A stretch of 63,174 nucleotides of DNA, counting the filler, from Sphyrna mokarran (Eukaryota), in assembly GCA_024679065.1 (NCBI GenBank). It is 2 parts of 2 records of this genome, joined end to end, with 100 filler letters (N's around TTAATTAATTAA, not from the genome) between each part and the next. Parts side by side here need not be neighbours in the genome. Positions count along the whole stretch, not along the records: positions 31,266 to 63,174 come from JAGIQG010000116.1; 1 more part is not named here. One strand, written 5' to 3'. This document shows positions 3,293-43,003 of this stretch, in pieces. Each line of letters begins with the position of its first letter. Position 1 is the first letter of the stretch. The position numbers and the translations under genes are program-made. The notes beneath the pieces are model-generated. The model saw only the letters and a program-made list of their open reading frames with translations, made no database searches and was not told the DNA's origin.

Positions 3293-4692
3293 TTCACTCA
3301 TAGACCCACTGATGTAAGTATTGCTTATTTATTGGCCCTTTCATTCTCCAGCAGAGAACAAATTTCAATTGAGGGTGACTTGCATCAGAAAAATAATGCA
3401 GCCAAAAATGTGGCACTGGTCAGCCTTCGAAATGAAACTCCCCAGTCAGAATAAATTAACAGCTGAACAGGATGATGTTGTTTATCAAATGATAAGAGAT
3501 TAAGTGAAGACTTCCAAAATCATATTAAGTTTGAATGAAGTAAACAAAGACAAATCCATTACATTGTCTGGTGGATAGGTTCCCATAGATAGACAGATTG
3601 AAGACAGCCGATTAAAGAACTGGACTTGGCACGAGAGATTTCAATTTTACAAAATGAGTTGTTGTGATCTGGAAGCCGCTGTCTTAAGGCGAGTGGAAGC
3701 AGATCCAAACAGCAACTTTCGAAAGTGGCAATTGGAGAAAAAGTTGTAGGCGAGCATATGGAGTCAGCCAGTGATTGAGTTATTTCAAACAGCCAGTACA
3801 AACTCCAAAGCTGAATGGCCTCTTTCCGTGCTCCAACAATCCCTCAATTAATATTTGGGCAACACGTTCAGGACGCTGCAAAATAACTGCATGATTAATG
3901 AAATATACTATAAATGCAATCAATCTTAACATGAAGCATTGTTTTTGGCTGTGAAATGTAATAACAATACAGTGGAATTTTTAAGTTAAATAAATTAACG
4001 TATTTAAAATGGAACTTGTTGTGAGCACCTTTGGCAACAAATCTGATTTCTACTCGGCGTGTTCTGTCGAGAAACTCTNNNNNNNNNNNNNNNNNNNNNN
4101 NNNNNNNNNNNNNNNNNNNNNNNNNNNNNNNNNNNNNNNNNNNNNNNNNNNNNNNNNNNNNNNNNNNNNNNNNNNNNNNNNNNNNNNNNNNNNNNNNNNN
4201 NNNNNNNNNNNNNNNNNNNNNNNNNNNNNNNNNNNNNNNNNNNNNNNNNNNGTACAATGTATCTGTATCTCCTCTCACCCTCTCTCTTTTAGGCAGAGAC
4301 CATATACTAAAAAAAAATGCTCTCTCTTTCACATACTCACCTGTTTTATTATATTATGAAATGCTCTATCTGTCACAGGCAAAGATGCATCTGGAGATTA
4401 AGGTATGTTTTTCATTAATTAATTCTTTCTATTTCTCTCCATCTCGCACACACTTATTTCAATGCACCGATTACATGTTTCTATATATTCAAAGATCTCT
4501 GTAACTCTCACCCATCTCATACTCTGTCAAACACGTAGAAGCACAAACACATACATACACACACACACACATACACACACATATAGAAACACACATACGC
4601 ACACACACACACATAAAAACACACATACGCACACACGAGTCAGAGTGTTCTATATAATAATGATTTTCTCTCATTCATTCTTGCCCACACCG

Positions 4693-27670: not shown

Positions 27671-28397
27671 NNNNNNNNNNNNNNNNNNNNNNNNNNNNNN
27701 NNNNNNNNNNNNNNNNNNNNNNNNNNNNNNNNNNNNNNNNNNNNNNNNNNNNNNNNNNNNNNNNNNNNNNNNNNNNNNNNNNNNNNNNNNNNNNNNNNNN
27801 NNNNNNNNNNNNNNNNNNNNNNNNNNNNNTAGACACAGAGGCAGAGACTCAGGTTGAGACAGAGAATACCGTCTCCCACCAGCGTTGGCAGGAAGTAAGA
27901 AACGAAGCTAAAACTTGGAATGTTTTTCTATAACTCTCTGTCCCTAGCTACATGACAGAAAATGTCAACCACCTCCAATCAATCTCCATCCAGCAATCCA
28001 GGAGATATTGAAACCACATAATTATGCATCAGTTCAAATTAAAATCAACAATTGTTCCACAATCCTACTGCAGACAACACGATGCTGAGAAATTGCCAGG
28101 AACTGCAAAGACATCTTGCTGAAAAAAAAAACAACTAAAATATGTTTCGTAAAGACACAGTATCATCTGAGGATGGGCAATAACGTTGGCTAGGCAGCCA
28201 TGCCAAAAATTATAAATGAAATAAATTGAGACAAATAATCATGTAATCCCTCTTAATGTCAGAGCCGAGGGACAGTGAGGTAAATAGTGAGAATAGCATT
28301 AACGAGGGCAATACGATTGGACAGCTGTTTCATTCTGAAAAGGAATAAGAATGATTGTATCAAATAATTTATGTCTCATATACTGTTTATTCTCCAG

Positions 28398-28697
28398 CTG
28401 GCTTACCCAAACCTTCCTTGATTCTGGATCCACATTCCGGAATCTTTCTACCAGGAGAAGATTATTCACTCATCTGCCACTTCCCCCTCACGCGCTGCAA
28501 TGTGGAATTGTACAAAGATTTCAAGGTCAGAGTCTTGTCCTTGAATGATGCCAACTACACGGCCATCTTCAGGTTTAGTGCGATTTCTTCTTCAAAAGGC
28601 CACAACACCTACACCTGCAAATATCAAAAATTCTACGAGAACAATATGACCTGGTCTTACTCACCGATCAGTGAACCGGTACTGTTCAGCGTGATGG
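28398..28697 (+). CDS. C2-type Ig-domain exon resembling LRC (LILR/KIR/A1BG/IGSF1) and FcR-like receptors
   Basis: ttctccAG|...ATGG|GTAAGG, 300 bp, phase 1-1, open: GLPKPSLILDPHSGIFLPGEDYSLICHF...GHNTYTCKYQ...WSYSPISEPVLFSVM. Has an LPKPSL start, 46 residues between the canonical Cys, YxCxY and an SxxSEPV end. Confidence 0.85.
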
Positions 28698-29474
28698 GTA
28701 AGGCAAATTTACAGATAATCTGATTGCCAAAGCAACATTAAGAATTACTCCATGTAACCTCACAAAAGGCCATTCATCACTTTATTCCTGTGTTGACCTC
28801 AAAGAACAAAACAGCACAGGAAATCGGCCCTTCAGCCCGATAAGCCCGCGCCGCCACATCGATGTTTCCACTTCTACCCATGATCCTTGTCTATGTTTAT
28901 AGATCTATGCATGGAAACCAAATTTGAGACAATTTAGGGAGAATTTGTTCTGCCACTCAGTGAGAGTACTCTCCAATTAAGCTGAGGCAATAGACTCGTC
29001 ATTCCTCTTGTCATTTTTTTTTCTATTTTTGCATACTCATAGTGTGTGGGGTTGGTTGTGTTGTGGTGTGTTTTTTTTTTTTTTTTTTGTTGGGTTGTGG
29101 GGGGTTTTTTTTTGGTGTTTGTTGTTTTTTTTTTTGTTGTGTTGTGTGTTTTTTTGGGGTTTGTTTTTTTTTTTTGTTTTGTTTGGTGTTTGTTTTTTTT
29201 TGGTGTTGGTTGTTTTGTTGTGTTTTTTTTTGTGGGGTGTTGTGGGGTGGTTTTGTGTGTGTGTGGGTTTTTTTGTGTTGTTTTTTTTTGTGTTTTGGGT
29301 TTTGTGTTTTGTTTTTTGGTTTGTTTTTTTTTGTTTGTTCCACTCTTTGACAATATTCCTATTGGATTTGCTTCCAGCATCATTTCAGACGAGGTGTTCC
29401 AACTGGCAATGCAAGCTGTGTTAAGAAGCAATGTTTCCAAATGAATCACCCATCTTATTTAATCAGCGTGAACC

Positions 29475-31165: not shown

Positions 31166-31265
31166 NNNNNNNNNNNNNNNNNNNNNNNNNNNNNNNNNNN
31201 NNNNNNNNNTTAATTAATTAANNNNNNNNNNNNNNNNNNNNNNNNNNNNNNNNNNNNNNNNNNNN
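31166..31265. other. Artificial assembly linker: N44-TTAATTAATTAA-N44 (100 bp)
   Basis: Exactly symmetric N runs around a 12-mer that has stops in all six frames (31210-31221). Confidence 0.95.
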
Positions 31266-32814
31266 TTTGGATAAAATGCTTGTCCTTTGAGAAGGGATTG
31301 AAGACCCATTGCCTTTTTCACTTACATTAAGATTAAAGGAATAAGGAGTGAACTCAATAGAATTTATTTTATTCTCAAAGGATATGACAAGACAAACTCT
31401 GGGTGTTTGTGTTTTTCTAGAGTAGAAAGTCTGTAACTTGGGGTCAGATTTGCAGAAAACCTGTTCAGCCATTTGGACTGAGAAGGGGAGAGATTTCTTC
31501 AGTCAAGGCCATTGTGGTGAATGTGAGAATTATGTGCACCCGAGAGTTGTGGATAGTCAGTGTTGAAGGCATTCAAGATAATGTTTGACAAAGGGTCATC
31601 TGGACTCGCGATATCAGCTCTTTTCTGTCCTTAGAGATACTATCAGACCTGCTGAGATTTTCCAGCATTTTCTCTTTTGATTTCAGATACCAGCATCTGC
31701 ACTAATTTGCTTTTCCTATCAGTTGGAACTATTGAATCAATGTATGCTTTCCTTAGGGAAGAAACCAGCAACAATTCACTCTCTCTTCAAGGGGGGAACA
31801 TGGTGGGTCTTTTTTCCCCCAGAGTTTGGAGAAACACGAGAGGATAAAGTTTTTTTTTAGTCACAAGTGAGGCTTACATTAACAGTGCAATGAAATTATT
31901 GTGAAATTCCCCTAGTCTGGCGCCTATTCGGATCAATGCGCTGAACTAGCAAATCTTTCAGAATGTGGAGGAATCTGGAACACCCGGAGGAAACCCGCAC
32001 AAACAGGAGGAGACCTTACAAACTCCAACAGATAGTGACCCAAGCCAGAAATCGAATCAAACACTTCATTGTGGCTCTCTATCACACATTCTCTCTCATA
32101 CACTTTCTCTCCTCTCCCTCTCTCTCTCTGACACACACAGACTCTCTCACAAACCTCCTCTCTAAACCTTCAGTGAAATCATATTTTTTTCAATACTGAG
32201 GCTAACAGCACTGTACACAGTACTCCAGATGTGGCCTATCGAAAGCTTTGTACAGCTTTAACATAATCCTGCTGTTTTAATATTCTTTGTTTTTGCACGA
32301 CTTATAAAGACAATCGTCCCGTCTGCCCCTAGTATCATCTCCTATCGCCTTCAGGGCCTTGTGGATGAGGAGTCAAATCTTTCTGTTCATTTGAGCTTTC
32401 CATGGCTCTGTCATTCATTAAATACTCCCTTGTCTTGTTACTCCTCCCACCGTGCATCCACTCGCACTTTTCAGTGTTAAGTTCCATGAGCCATTGACCT
32501 GCCATCTGACCAAGCTGTCAATATTATCCGACAATCTTTGACTTCTTCCTCACTATTAGCCATTCTGTTAATCTTCGTTCCATGTGAAAGCTTACATACC
32601 CACCATCCTCCACACACAGACATACACACAGTGCAGTGAGAGAGTGAGGAGGGAGTCTGTTTACCCTATGAGTACTATTCAAACTAACCCACATTCTGTG
32701 GATTGGATATAAATCTGCTCCAATTTATCCCAATTACAGACATTGTTTGGGGTTTAACTCTGTTGTGTGATTTGGCTCTGACGGCCCATTAAACTCTCTG
32801 TGTTTAATTTCCAG

Positions 32815-33162
32815 AATCTTTCAGTCAGTCAGTGACACAGAGCCCAAAAGCGGTGACCAGGAAGGAGTGTCAGTCTCTCACCATCACCTGTGTTTTCAAA
32901 GCTGATTATTCTAGTTTGGAGGGCGGACATTTCTTTAGGCAAACCCAGAGCGGGAAAGAACGGGAGCGGATCTCCAGCGGAGGAAGATTTGTTGTATCGG
33001 TGAATAAAGCACAAAACACATTTTCTCTTGAAATTCAGGATGTGAGAGTTGAAGACACCGCCATCTATTACTGTAAAGCTCAGTATAAACATGGATGTGG
33101 AACTAGCGTTTCAAAAGCGGGTTATGCAGACGGACCTGGAACGGTGGTGAATGTCACAGCTG
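32815..33162 (+). CDS. Germline-joined NAR-TCR V-(D)-J exon (IgNAR-type single V domain)
   Basis: tttccAG|...ACAGCTG|GTAAGT, 348 bp, phase 1-1, open: SFSQSVTQSPKAVTRKECQSLTITCVFKADYSSLEGGHFFRQTQSGKERERISSGGRFVVSVNKAQNTFSLEIQDVRVEDTAIYYCKAQYKHGCGTSVSKAGYADGPGTVVNVTA. Shows the VNAR-type short FR2-CDR2, an FR1 extra Cys and a continuous CDR3 plus GxGT J motif with no RSS. Confidence 0.9.
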
Positions 33163-36100
33163 GTAAGTGACTCCAAGCCGAAATATCTTACAGACTTACT
33201 GGGTTCATGTCCGCACTGTGGAGTTGGTGATGTGGTGGTAATGTAATTGCGTTAGTATTTCTGTGACCCAGTGCTCAGCCTGCACACGGTCAAATCTCAC
33301 CAGGGCAGCTGGTGCAATTTAATGGAAATTTATGTGAGCAACTGGAAGTAAAGACCAGTCTCAGTATGGCGATGATAAACCCGTTACGGATGGAAATCTG
33401 CCGTTTCCACCTGGTGTAGTAAATATGGTCATCAGTATAAAGCAATATGGTTTACTTTTACATGCTGTCTGTAATGAAGCTGAGCGAGGCACTGAGTAGA
33501 AACAAATTGTTGTGGCGTCTGAAAGAGGAATATTCAGATATTGTACTTGGCTGTGACATGGCACCGGAAATGACCATGGCAAACCCAATCCTCCCATTAA
33601 TGCCCTGATTGGCCATTTAAGTTGTCAATTACTTCCAAGGCCATTCCACTAATTAAAGATTGTTTCTTTTACTTCTTTCTAAGATGAAGAATGTTCCATG
33701 ATGTCTTCCTTGCCTGTTGGTACAGCATATTGAAATCTGCTATCACAGAATTATATAACATGGAATAGGCCCTTCAGCTTATCAAGTCTGTACCAACAAA
33801 ATCTTCATGAATTCCATCTTCCAGCACTAGACCCACAGCCTTAAATGTTTCGCAAGTTCATCTACGTCCATCTCCCTTTCTAAACATATGCCACCTATTT
33901 ATTGACCCTTCAACTGTGAGGAGAATTTGATTCCCATTTACCCTGTCAATTTCTGTATAAACTTATAGATCTCAAAGTGGGTCTCTGCTCTGAAGAGCAC
34001 AATATAAGCTTATCCAGGCTCATCTTGAAGTTCAAATTCTCCTTCGCAGGCGACATTATGGTGAATCTCCTCCGCACCCTTTCAGTGAAATCATATTCTT
34101 TCAATAGTGAGGCGATAGATGTGGCCTATCGAAATCTTTGTACAGCTCTAACATAACCCGGCAGTTTTAATAATTTATGCCATGACTTATTAAAGCGATT
34201 GTCCCGTCTGCCCCAATTATCATGTCCTATCGCCTTCAGTGATTTGTGGACAAGGAATCAAATCTTTCTGTTCATTTGAGCTTTCCAGTGTCCTGCCATT
34301 TATTAAATACTCCCTTGTCTTGTTACTCCTCCCAACATGTATCCCCATGCAATTTTCAGGATTAAGTTCCATCTGCCATTGATCTGCCGTTCACCCCATC
34401 CGTTCCCCTAGATATTGAATTCCTCTGTTTTCAACACCACTTGGAAGAGGAATTGATTGTGGTGATAAGTGAAATGTGGCCCAATCTGGAAACCCAATCT
34501 GGAGCACTCTGAAACAATTTTAACACAACCATCAGGAATGGCTTATCTCTTTGAAGTAAGTGAACCAATGATTGCCACACCAGGTTCTATACTGAAAGCG
34601 ATTGCCCTATGTGAAGGTATTAAGTATCCAAATGCTACCTTCTTAAGAGTTCAGAAGCATGACAGCCAATTCAACAGAAAATATTCTCCGGAGGTTTGAC
34701 GAAACAGATTCTGGGCATGTGTCCAGGCAGGGACGCCTTTAGCTTTGGGTCACAACTTTTAAATAATTGTCAATAATTGAGAAGAAGATAAATTCTTTCG
34801 GTTATTCCCTTTTATGAGTATCTGAGAAGCGTTTATATCAGAAAACTGTGAATGCTCAGTGGTTTTGTGTATTCAAGGCAATTACAGACAAGATTTTCCA
34901 AACTAAAAGGATCTTTTTTTACTGGATAAGTTCAGGAATGTGTTGGTGATTTAGCCCCAACTTTGTTGAAAACAGGGAAGATTTTAGCGTTCCCTCTGGA
35001 AAGTAAAGAGAGAAGAGAAGAATTCATAGAAACCGTTTAAATTCTGATTGTATAATGTGTGGGTGTTGACCAGTTCTTTATTTGTATGTGAGTTTAGAAC
35101 AATTTATACATGATTGGCACTAATAAAACTAATAAACAGATTGAGAGTAATAACTGTACGGTGGATTGTCAGAACTTGGCACATAGAACTGTTGGAGAAG
35201 GTAGTTTTGTTGCATTTGTGGGGCATCTTGAGCATACGGGGGGAGAAGGTAATAGATTTACAAAGGGAGCTGGATGTAAATATCAACTGGATTTCTGGAT
35301 GGAGGAGGTAAGTTTGGATAAATTTGCAACATAAATCAGTTGGGCCAAATGGTACAATATATTTTGGCAGACTCTTAATAACGTAAAACATAGAGAAAAC
35401 CCTGCCCCAAAAACCAGGGAAAGAACATTAATGTGCAGAAGGAATTAAAATTGTCAGAGAGCCGGAAGAGACGGTTCCCTGTGTGTAACTGTAAAACCAC
35501 TGTGGAAACTGAACAAACTGAACCCAACAGACAGCTGGGAGACTTTGAGACAAGTTCTCATGATTACAAGACACCGAACAATAGAACATGAAAATATAAA
35601 TAAAATGAAACTGATTAAACAGTCCTATTTTAATAGAAATAGAAAAATAGATAAACAAATGGATGAAAAGGCAAACATAAACTCCCAGAAGTTTTAAACC
35701 AAAATAAATTAATGACATTTGACCATCGATGTGCAGCTTCGTTCAGCCCCTTTGGAGCTGATGAATCACAATAACACTCTGTTGGGTCTTGCTGTGCTTG
35801 GTGTGGAGCTTATCTGGGTTATCCTGGGACAATCATGTCTGGAAACGGATTGCTTCACTGATGATAAAATGTTCCCTAGTGCTTGTCTGTCAATAATGAA
35901 AATAGAAGCTGGATTGTACTCTCCATCGCAGGATCATGTAGGGTGGAAGAATGGCATTCGGCCCTTCTTGTAGATGTTGACCCTTTATAAATGAAATCCA
36001 ATTCTTCCTAATGCCCACGAATTTTTCCCCATTACCCTGCTTGCCTTTCCTGTGCCGGTACTTGACCATTTGGTAATGACCAACTGGTCATTCACTGTTG

Positions 36101-36339: not shown

Positions 36340-36645
36340 ATTCCAGTTCCCTGGTGTCCAAGAATCCGCCTCTCCAAACCTCTGCTGCAGGGAACACGGT
36401 TATTCTAAGATGTGAATATTCAGGGTTATGTCAGTACACAGTACACTGGTACAGCCAATCTCCAGGGCAGGCTCCGAAATTATTGCAACAGGCACACACT
36501 TCAGGAGGGGACAACAAAGAAAACATTGCCAGAGACAGAATTTCTGCTTCTATCGATTCTGGCGAGAAAATCAGCCGATTAACAATCTCCAAACTGCAAC
36601 TGAGCGACTCGGCTGTGTACTACTGTGCACTGAGTCAACGCACAA
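36340..36645 (+). CDS. Leaderless supporting TCR delta-type V gene segment (unrearranged)
   Basis: ccttcAG|ATTCC.., phase 1: DSSSLVSKNPPLQTSAAGNTVILRCEYSGLCQYTVHWYSQSPGQAPKLL...RLTISKLQLSDSAVYYCALSQRT. Has the CDR1 extra Cys typical of NAR-TCR supporting V, followed by an RSS. Confidence 0.92.
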
Positions 36646-36684
36646 CACAGTGATAGAGAACACGGAGAGAGCAGTACAGAAACT
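36646..36684 (+). other. 23-bp-spacer recombination signal sequence of the supporting V
   Basis: CACAGTG-(23 nt)-ACAGAAACT. Confidence 0.95.
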
Positions 36685-36706
36685 TGAACATGGTGGGCAT
36701 TATAGA

Positions 36707-36745
36707 CTCCGTGATATAGAACCCGGAGAGAGGGGTACAGAAACC
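36707..36745 (+). other. Tandem-duplicated, probably inactive 23-RSS
   Basis: CTCCGTG-(23 nt)-ACAGAAACC; second copy of a 61-bp unit, with the heptamer CAC broken. Confidence 0.8.
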
Positions 36746-37007
36746 TGAACATGGTGGGGATTATATCGTGGTACCATAATAGCTGAAACCTCCTTAAAGC
36801 GGGTCAATAACCTCCCAGCCACTCAGCAGAACACCAAGCTCTCTCAATTGTAGCCAACATTACCCACACCCCCTCCCCCTCCACAGCACTCCCCACAACT
36901 TCCTTCCATTCCCACAGTGATATTCACTGAGAGTACACCATTACTAGTCTGACCGACCCCAAGTGGGACACGACAGAGGGACAGAGAGAGGTGGACCAGA
37001 CCACAAG

Positions 37008-37035
37008 AGATCTTGTTATGGAATGAAAGATTGTG
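37008..37035 (-). other. 12-bp-spacer RSS of the J segment
   Basis: + strand AGATCTTGT-(12 nt)-GATTGTG; nonamer matches GGTTTTTGT at 6 of 9 positions and the essential GTG is retained. Confidence 0.75.
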
Positions 37036-37098
37036 TGACATATGGCGAGACTAGAAAGCTCATCTTTGGCATTGGAACCAGGCTGATAGTGGAACCCA
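37036..37098 (+). CDS. TCR alpha/delta-type J gene segment (TYGETRKLIFGIGTRLIVEP)
   Basis: KLIFGxGTxLxVEP motif, phase-1 donor CCCA|GTAAGT, upstream 12-RSS; absent from the ORF track because it is short. Confidence 0.93.
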
Positions 37099-38690: not shown

Positions 38691-39002
38691 AAGTGAAAAA
38701 CCTAAAAGAACCAAAATTGAGTGTCTTTTACCCGCCAGTGCCACCGGGAGCCACCAACACCAGCACCGCTGCAGTCTGCTTGGCCTCGGACTTCTCCCCC
38801 AAGGCAATCCAGCTCTCCCTGTACACAGGATCCGGCCAGGAGGTCAATGTGACAAGATCCAGTGTCCCATTGGAGAGCGGGAATTACAGGAGTTCGGGTT
38901 TCCTCTTTTTCTCCCAATCCGGGAAATCGCCAAACATCACGTGCAAGGCATTTCACAATAATCAGATTTACTCAGTAAACACCCTACCCACAGCTGGGAT
39001 TG
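38691..39002 (+). CDS. TCR delta-like constant Ig domain exon
   Basis: ttttttcAG|AAGTG...GGGATTG|GTAAGT, 312 bp, phase 1-1: KVKNLKEPKLSVFYPP...TAAVCLASDFSPKAI...NVTRS...GNYRSSGFL...NITCKAFHN; resembles shark TCR-delta C (PKLSxFYP, AAVCLASDFxPK). Confidence 0.9.
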
Positions 39003-41874: not shown

Positions 41875-41922
41875 ATCAAACTAAATGCCTTAAAAGTCGA
41901 TATGATTCCTCGACAGAAAACG
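41875..41922 (+). CDS. TCR connecting-peptide (hinge) exon with interchain Cys (DQTKCLKSRYDSSTEN)
   Basis: gtccttccAG|ATCAA...AAAACG|GTATGT, 48 bp, phase 1-1. Confidence 0.85.
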
Positions 41923-42393: not shown

Positions 42394-42503
42394 ATCGACT
42401 GAGGACAAACTTTTTGTCTTTGATGGTGATGGGGCTAAGAATTTTGTTTCTCAAGAGCATTGTCTTCAGTGTCCTGATGACGGCCAGGGTGTGGTTATTT
42501 TGA
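42394..42503 (+). CDS. TCR alpha/delta-type transmembrane exon (DRLRTNFLSLMVMGLRILFLKSIVFSVLMTARVWLF*)
   Basis: gtggcAG|ATCGA; NxLSL..GLRIL.LK...F...MT.R.W motif with the two basic TM residues (R, K); stop immediately followed by donor G|GTAAGA, as in TRAC/TRDC with an untranslated last exon. Confidence 0.93.
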
Positions 42504-43003
42504 GGTAAGATCGGTCACCTAAATGCCTGCCCAGAAAGACAAAAGTGTGATGGACACAGTCCATTGACGGGATCCCGCGAGGTCACTGTTAAGGCAGCGC
42601 TGAAGCTAACCCGTGGAGTGAACAGTAACTTGGATACATTTAGACAAACGGACTCTTCCCCCAGTGCCCCATCCTCATCGCTTTTCATCCCGTCAACCCC
42701 CGCCCCCAATCGCAACCTTAACTTCTTAAACCTCTCCAGAGTTGTGTTTAATTATGGGTGTCACTGACAGACCAGCCTTTTTACACCCATCCTCTGGTCT
42801 TGACCTGTGTGGCACTTTCAGAGAGTCAGTGCAGACTCTATGGGCCAAATTGCATCCTTCTGCACTGTAGGGATTTTTGTGCACTTGCATTGGCTTCTGA
42901 GAATATTAATGGAGCAGGTTAATGGAGACTTTAAAGATAAAATGTGTTCTTTTCTTGCTGATCTTTGATGTTCTCCCATTGTTGTTCCTTTCATTCCAAA
43001 CAG

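Follow-up and report, generated by a model that had tools for sequence, protein, structure and literature searches.

A candidate D-less NAR-TCR-type delta gene block with its own constant exon, and a broken leader, in Sphyrna mokarran

Introduction

The NAR-TCR of sharks is a doubly rearranging TCR-delta (PMC1845163, PMC12227049, PMC5931798). It is marked by a NAR-type V that has a cysteine in the a-b loop and lacks the tryptophan of the WYRK motif, and by a leaderless supporting V with a cysteine in CDR1; the supporting V segments of both nurse shark and elephant shark are leaderless (PMC1845163). In the literature examined here, shark TCR genes are organised as translocons and NAR-TCR rearranges twice by V(D)J recombination. 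A NAR-TCR chain is also expected to come from a spliced V1-V2-J-C-delta transcript, to pair with TCR-gamma and to have an inter-domain disulphide. The D segments of TCR-delta are flanked by a 5' 12-RSS and a 3' 23-RSS (PMC3457774). The TCR-mu cluster of the platypus has the order V1-Dn-J1-V2-J2-C, with V2-J2 joints of limited diversity, and TCR-mu and NAR-TCR have been called convergent (PMC7615758, PMC3457774).

The window analysed here is a stretch of 63,174 nucleotides, filler included, made up of parts of two records of the Sphyrna mokarran assembly GCA_024679065.1. Within 10 kb it contains, in this order, a V exon already joined in the germline (V1), a second V segment (V2), a J segment and a constant exon (C), then hinge and transmembrane (TM) exons, and everything from V1 to TM is open. 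On balance, we read this block as a self-contained, D-less delta gene of the shark NAR-TCR type, whose supporting V is likely to be joined by RAG straight to J with short, variable junctions. With the leader of its first V broken, the present copy has likely been disabled.

Like NAR-TCR, the block has a VNAR-like first V, a leaderless supporting V-delta with a CDR1 cysteine, a J and a delta-type C. Whereas the NAR-type V of NAR-TCR typically carries a leader, the block retains a four-codon remnant with a mutated donor and no ATG; whereas NAR-TCR needs two V(D)J rearrangements, the block could use one at most, as V1 is pre-joined and V2 is without a D; and whereas NAR-TCR shares the D, J and C of a translocon, the block appears to have a single J and C of its own. 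Compared with TCR-delta at large, the constant exon is of the delta type but an RSS-flanked D is missing. We class the block as a derived NAR-TCR variant, built from NAR-TCR parts but departing from two defining properties, double rearrangement and an intact leader.

The nearest layout is that of platypus TCR-mu, although which domain is fixed and which is variable is partly the other way round. Both are clusters with their own C, in which a D-less supporting V is, or in the block would be, joined directly to J. However, the V domains of TCR-mu are VH-like, its V1 is somatically diverse and it belongs to non-placental mammals, whereas V1 here is NAR-type, fixed and elasmobranch. Marsupial TCR-mu fixes V2, the reverse of the block, which fixes V1. 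A D-less block that has its own C, and that seems to have multiplied in one shark genus or more, would imply that a common cluster design was arrived at twice, once in sharks and once in monotremes. No description of a D-less NAR-TCR cluster with its own C was found in the literature searched, a search that fell short of the main primary papers.

Organisation of the block and its constant region

The order of the parts, their open frames and phase-1 matches, a 23/12 signal pair 390 bp apart, the lack of a D and the lesions of the leader can all be read directly in the DNA. Splice sites across the exons from V1 to TM are canonical, in phase 1 and matching. The C exon (38691-39002, plus strand, as are the exons and segments that follow in the text) is a C1-set domain of delta type. 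The hinge exon, which encodes the connecting peptide (41875-41922), is open, in phase 1 and contains a cysteine. The TM exon (42394-42504) carries the arginine and lysine of TCR alpha/delta chains, then a stop and, beyond it, a donor; as an alpha/delta-type segment it does not discriminate alpha from delta. A second free J, or any further V or C, was not found in the 63-kb window.

An earlier note on this DNA had taken the chain to be of delta type, and the constant exon agrees. It is 54% identical to a catshark model labelled TCRD (P0053), and its profile also matches proteins of stingray and skate that carry the name 'T cell receptor delta constant', an assignment by comparison with delta-labelled sequences. 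In a search of representative proteins, the matches listed (150 of 197) were mostly unrelated C1 domains, and they included no expressed supporting-V junction.

In Mustelus asterias, 12 records on 12 contigs of different length carry this C (eight found directly, at 76-83% identity), although haplotype copies may account for some of these contigs. In three of the 12, a supporting V runs directly into a C subtype nearest to this C by tree path, and one of those three does so through a J with the same ending as the J here; the homologues are automated gene models without DNA, in which the D content of the Mustelus blocks is not visible. Other species yielded one model each, apart from Heptranchias with two, in searches that were word-based or clustered and whose low counts are weak evidence. 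The C tree contains no supported clade that includes this C, and its support is too poor for statements on orthology or the order of events.

The germline-joined first V and its leader

V1 (32815-33162) lies 3.2 kb upstream of V2 and holds V and J fused in one exon with phase-1 ends and a GTAAGT donor. It bears the a-b loop cysteine and lacks the WYRK tryptophan. Among solved structures, VNAR domains make up most of its full-length matches, and all 45 of its protein matches are elasmobranch gene models, nearly all of which pair such a V with a supporting V. A reading of V2 as a stand-alone V-delta was rejected, given the NAR-type V exon upstream and the NAR-TCR marks. A 277-bp repeat fragment flanks V1 on either side (32227-32503 and 34117-34388, 83% identical).

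The top match, P0001 (75% identity), corresponds by name and species to the white-shark gene LOC121270133, for which Table S1 of Flajnik et al. (PMC12227049) gives the label 'NARTCR V(gj)V(gi)V'. Like the block, this gene places a germline-joined NAR-TCR V with a similar cysteine-bearing CDR3 before a supporting V, but its model includes no J or C, and its joined state is known from the table label alone. In P0001, two tandem NAR-type V precede the supporting V.

The germline-joined CDR3 of V1 (33075-33130) has a Cys-Gly pattern. The cysteine pattern is common to four of the 45 matches, three from white shark (P0001, P0004 and P0005) and one from basking shark (P0003), a hint that a NAR-TCR subfamily was pre-joined long ago. 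In a tree of V1 frameworks the group with this CDR3 does not form one clade (three changes), a topology still compatible with one origin, and the tree is too poorly supported for orthology or event order. The fused CDR3s of most homologous models were not accepted as germline joins, because several read through a heptamer and look stitched together by the gene predictor.

The leader of V1 is badly damaged. Among 34 homologues it comprises 14 residues, mostly ending in CLP. Comparison with these leaders identified a remnant at 32655-32673 (plus strand), 147 nt before the V1 acceptor, in which the final four codons (VCLP) survive and the first ten are missing. There is no in-frame ATG, a stop stands at 32637-39, five codons upstream of the remnant, the donor reads ATGAGT in place of GTGAGT, and the split codon would read TAA. 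Searches of the window with a profile, a degenerate DNA pattern and an ATG-GT scan found neither a displaced 5' half nor a better ATG-bearing candidate. In the intron between V1 and V2, the ATG-GT candidates were all weak. Since V2 lacks a leader too, no surface chain can be produced from the block in its assembled form. The copy is likely dead, except if there is a leader on the far side of the N gap at 31166-31265, upstream of V1, which could conceal a leader or a V. The exons from V1 to TM, on the other hand, are intact, which would be unexpected in an old pseudogene.

A working gene is unlikely but deserves consideration. A leader, or a leader-bearing NAR-type V, in or beyond the gap would be spliced onto V1. 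The product would be a near-invariant, innate-like receptor whose antigen-binding domain is fixed and whose supporting domain varies a little. Every downstream exon is intact, splicing from an upstream V with a final G would keep the frame of V1 and create no stop, and the white shark model offers a precedent in its tandem NAR-type V pair. The shared cysteine pattern in CDR3 also speaks for this reading, as do the germline-joined Ig genes of sharks that are expressed early in life (PMC2193156). However, the 32 kb upstream hold no further V or family-type leader, the remnant of the native leader is where one would expect it but has three lesions, and the V1 tree does not unite the sequences that share the CDR3 pattern.

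It is very improbable that the block instead encodes an ordinary two-domain delta chain that dispenses with V1 and takes its leader from an ATG-started hydrophobic frame at 35761. This frame meets a phase-1 GT after 13 codons, in frame with the V2 acceptor, and the stretch has a similar counterpart in Mustelus P0046 (70.6% over 17 aa, E 0.009). Its donor (GTGTGG) is nevertheless far from consensus, its hydrophobic core is short and contains an aspartate in the Mustelus copy, the CDR1 cysteine of V2 would be left without its presumed partner, and the supporting V of nurse and elephant shark does without a leader, as noted above. The stretch at 35746-35810, about 550 bp upstream of V2, which holds this mildly hydrophobic frame, may be the vestige of a V2 leader or promoter. 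A derived, D-less NAR-TCR block with a disabled leader remains our preferred reading.

The supporting V, its J and the recombination signals

V2 (36340-36645) is an open supporting V-delta segment with an extra cysteine in CDR1 and without a family-type leader. In the eight best shark models, the supporting V shows 77-82% identity to it. Against metagenome contigs, the V2 query returned 51 loci, none of them supporting-V-like (best full-length identity 41%, and one 18-residue match at 89%).

The coordinates that had been proposed for the V-23RSS and the 12RSS-J pair were all correct, at 390 bp from heptamer to heptamer. V2 ends at 36645 and is followed by a 23-RSS (36646-36684) with a perfect heptamer and 2/9 nonamer mismatches. 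J (37036-37098) is 63 nt long, with an FGxG motif and a GTAAGT donor, and is preceded by a 12-RSS on the minus strand (37008-37035) whose heptamer keeps CAC but has two mismatches and whose nonamer has 3/9, a total of five in 16; these values are mismatch counts against the RSS consensus. At three mismatches or fewer, the 23-RSS pattern matched twice in 63 kb, against 1.1 expected, while the 12-RSS pattern had no match at the same cut-off, outside which the signal of J itself falls. By themselves, then, the RSS patterns are not above chance in the window. We regard the two signals as real because they are placed at the coding ends of V and J and because read-through of the J signal occurs in two other sharks: it matches before J in catshark P0053 and Mustelus P0048, so the J signal is native.

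A two-strand scan with spacers of 11-13 and 22-24 found no RSS-flanked D between V2 and J, in agreement with the earlier note. Two features of the interval were considered as D remnants and rejected. The first, at 36707-36745 (plus strand), is a decayed tandem copy of the 23-RSS that shares 51 of 61 bases with the first unit; its heptamer (CTCCGTG) has lost CAC and it has no 5' 12-RSS. The second is an orphan perfect heptamer at 36913-36919 (plus strand), which has no usable nonamer (5/9 mismatches at spacer 12, 6/9 at spacer 23) and no partner 12-RSS on its 5' side. The tandem units span 36646-36767 with a 61-bp period, each with a 23-RSS, and comparable stacks can be seen where epaulette shark and Mustelus models read through (P0043, P0048).

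A direct join of V2 to J is consistent with the 12/23 rule. Shark Ig miniloci recombine across approximately 400 bp (PMC2435157) and 500 bp (PMC2193156), and with its 23/12 pair inside this range the block would likely be joined directly if the locus is open. RAG would then join V2 to J in a single step.

A cryptic phase-1 GT in the end of V2 (36633-36639), in frame to the C exon, would skip J. The Mustelus models P0023 and P0046 are drawn with such a J-skipping splice; the site departs widely from consensus, and the gene predictor may have introduced it as an artefact.

The V2-J junction

Canonical joints of fetal mouse gamma-delta T cells are reportedly also D-less V-J joins with short end homologies. 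The earlier note drew on the ends of V2 and J to propose that an ACA homology predicts one canonical V2-J junction and that rearrangement may serve mainly as a RAG-dependent on-switch. Its reading of the letters was accurate. A precise join is in frame, with the peptide predicted; an in-frame ACA stands at both coding ends (36642-44 and 37038-40), and the join that it would guide is likewise in frame, gives the peptide predicted and requires trims of just 1 and 2 nt; and unjoined V2 runs into TGA at 36651-53. This TGA results from reading the heptamer in the register that is usual for it.

In fishes and sharks, D-less joints do genuinely show joining guided by microhomology (PMC10322711). Homology guides most teleost TCR-alpha joints and fetal joints poor in TdT (PMC10322711), the platypus V2-J2 joints described above are limited in diversity, and the J of Mustelus P0048 likewise has threonine at the position of the ACA codon.

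A single canonical junction fixed by ACA is improbable all the same. In 100,000 draws of random J ends per setting, an in-frame 3-nt match arose in 5.5% at trims of up to 2 nt, in 12% at up to 4 nt and in 25% at up to 6 nt, so that the ACA homology only marginally exceeds chance. It also has competitors: of 20 homologies of at least 2 nt found at the ends of V2 and J, eight are in frame, among them a 3-nt TGA (36631-33 and 37036-38, with a V trim of 12) and a 2-nt GC. The loop would measure 14 residues for ACA and 11 each for TGA and GC, against 16 for the precise join. The V tail extends 22 nt from the cysteine codon, V2 has TG at positions 8-9 from that codon and J begins with TG. This V8-9/J1-2 TG pattern is termed primordial in PMC10322711, and the TGA match contains it.

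Nor are the two ends special to this pair. A threonine codon stands at that V position in 23 of 44 supporting-V rows, and the same heptamer-derived stop terminates 19 of them, in a set that includes spliced models without a visible V end and from which the search pattern missed two models. Both features are family-wide and neither is peculiar to this V2-J pair. On the J side, the catshark J has glycine where the ACA codon stands. The idea of an on-switch fares no better, as the stop at the V end is shared across the family and every split V needs RAG for its expression; in the present copy, moreover, the leader is broken.

Joints of another D-less shark chain are mostly diversified and point the same way. 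In bamboo shark TCR-alpha, 45.7% of joints are without insertions and 54% have them (PMC10322711, Supplementary Table 1), microhomology is seen in 28.3%, and trimming averages 2.98 and 3.99 nt, figures that describe TCR-alpha of another shark species and not delta chains. The share of microhomology joints is 46-66% in teleosts against 28% in the shark, whose joints are much less predictable (PMC10322711), and probable N regions have been described in shark light-chain joints (PMC2193156). The block resembles the TCR-alpha system of PMC10322711 in being D-less and having short end homologies, but differs in its delta-type C and its long V tail. The V2-J junction is likely to be short and narrowed, yet variable rather than fixed; the joint would be trimmed and N-extended, and the ACA join would be frequent among the outcomes but in the minority. 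Because it pairs one V with one J whose end homologies are known, the block offers a clean test of microhomology against TdT in cartilaginous fish, even if the broken leader restricts what this copy itself can show.

Possible origin and surroundings of the block

The block may have arisen when a NAR-TCR cassette was duplicated together with J and C-delta and the D region was lost. The second V would have a mainly structural role, as has been proposed for TCR-mu. A broader scenario, which we hold to be rather unlikely, is that some sharks multiplied TCR-delta into TCR-mu-like miniclusters. One kind would combine a fixed NAR-type domain with a conserved CDR3 and a D-less supporting V, and a single short RAG join would license a near-invariant, innate-like three-domain receptor, the mirror of marsupial TCR-mu. 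A NAR-type domain fixed in this way would provide a defined probe with which to seek the ligand of NAR-TCR.

The condition of the assembly bears on whether D segments were collapsed out of the interval, or whether the block is an inert orphon that is never opened to RAG; we consider either quite improbable. The window contains four N runs (4079-4251, 27671-27829, 31166-31209 and 31222-31265) and a T/G low-complexity tract at about 29040-29340 that looks unpolished, the V2-J interval itself includes the tandem RSS repeat, and the neighbours are a GPCR, tRNAs and a retroelement, with no other TCR segment. Yet the sequence is free of N from 31266 through the end of the window, and the Mustelus models link a supporting V to a similar J and C. 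A 12-base AT palindrome separates the last two N runs, which together resemble a single scaffold joint 1.5 kb upstream of V1.

Upstream of that joint, an isolated open exon at 28355-28723 (plus strand) has the look of an Ig-type domain and a phase-1 donor, with no Pfam match at E 0.001. On the far side of the block, an open class A GPCR frame occupies 54706-55689 on the minus strand (7tm_1, E 7e-19), and a second frame on that strand (58955-59269) resembles a GPCR N-terminus and has no Pfam match. A tRNA-Gln at 60501-60573 (plus strand) and a tRNA-Arg at 61538-61612 (minus strand) lie beyond them.
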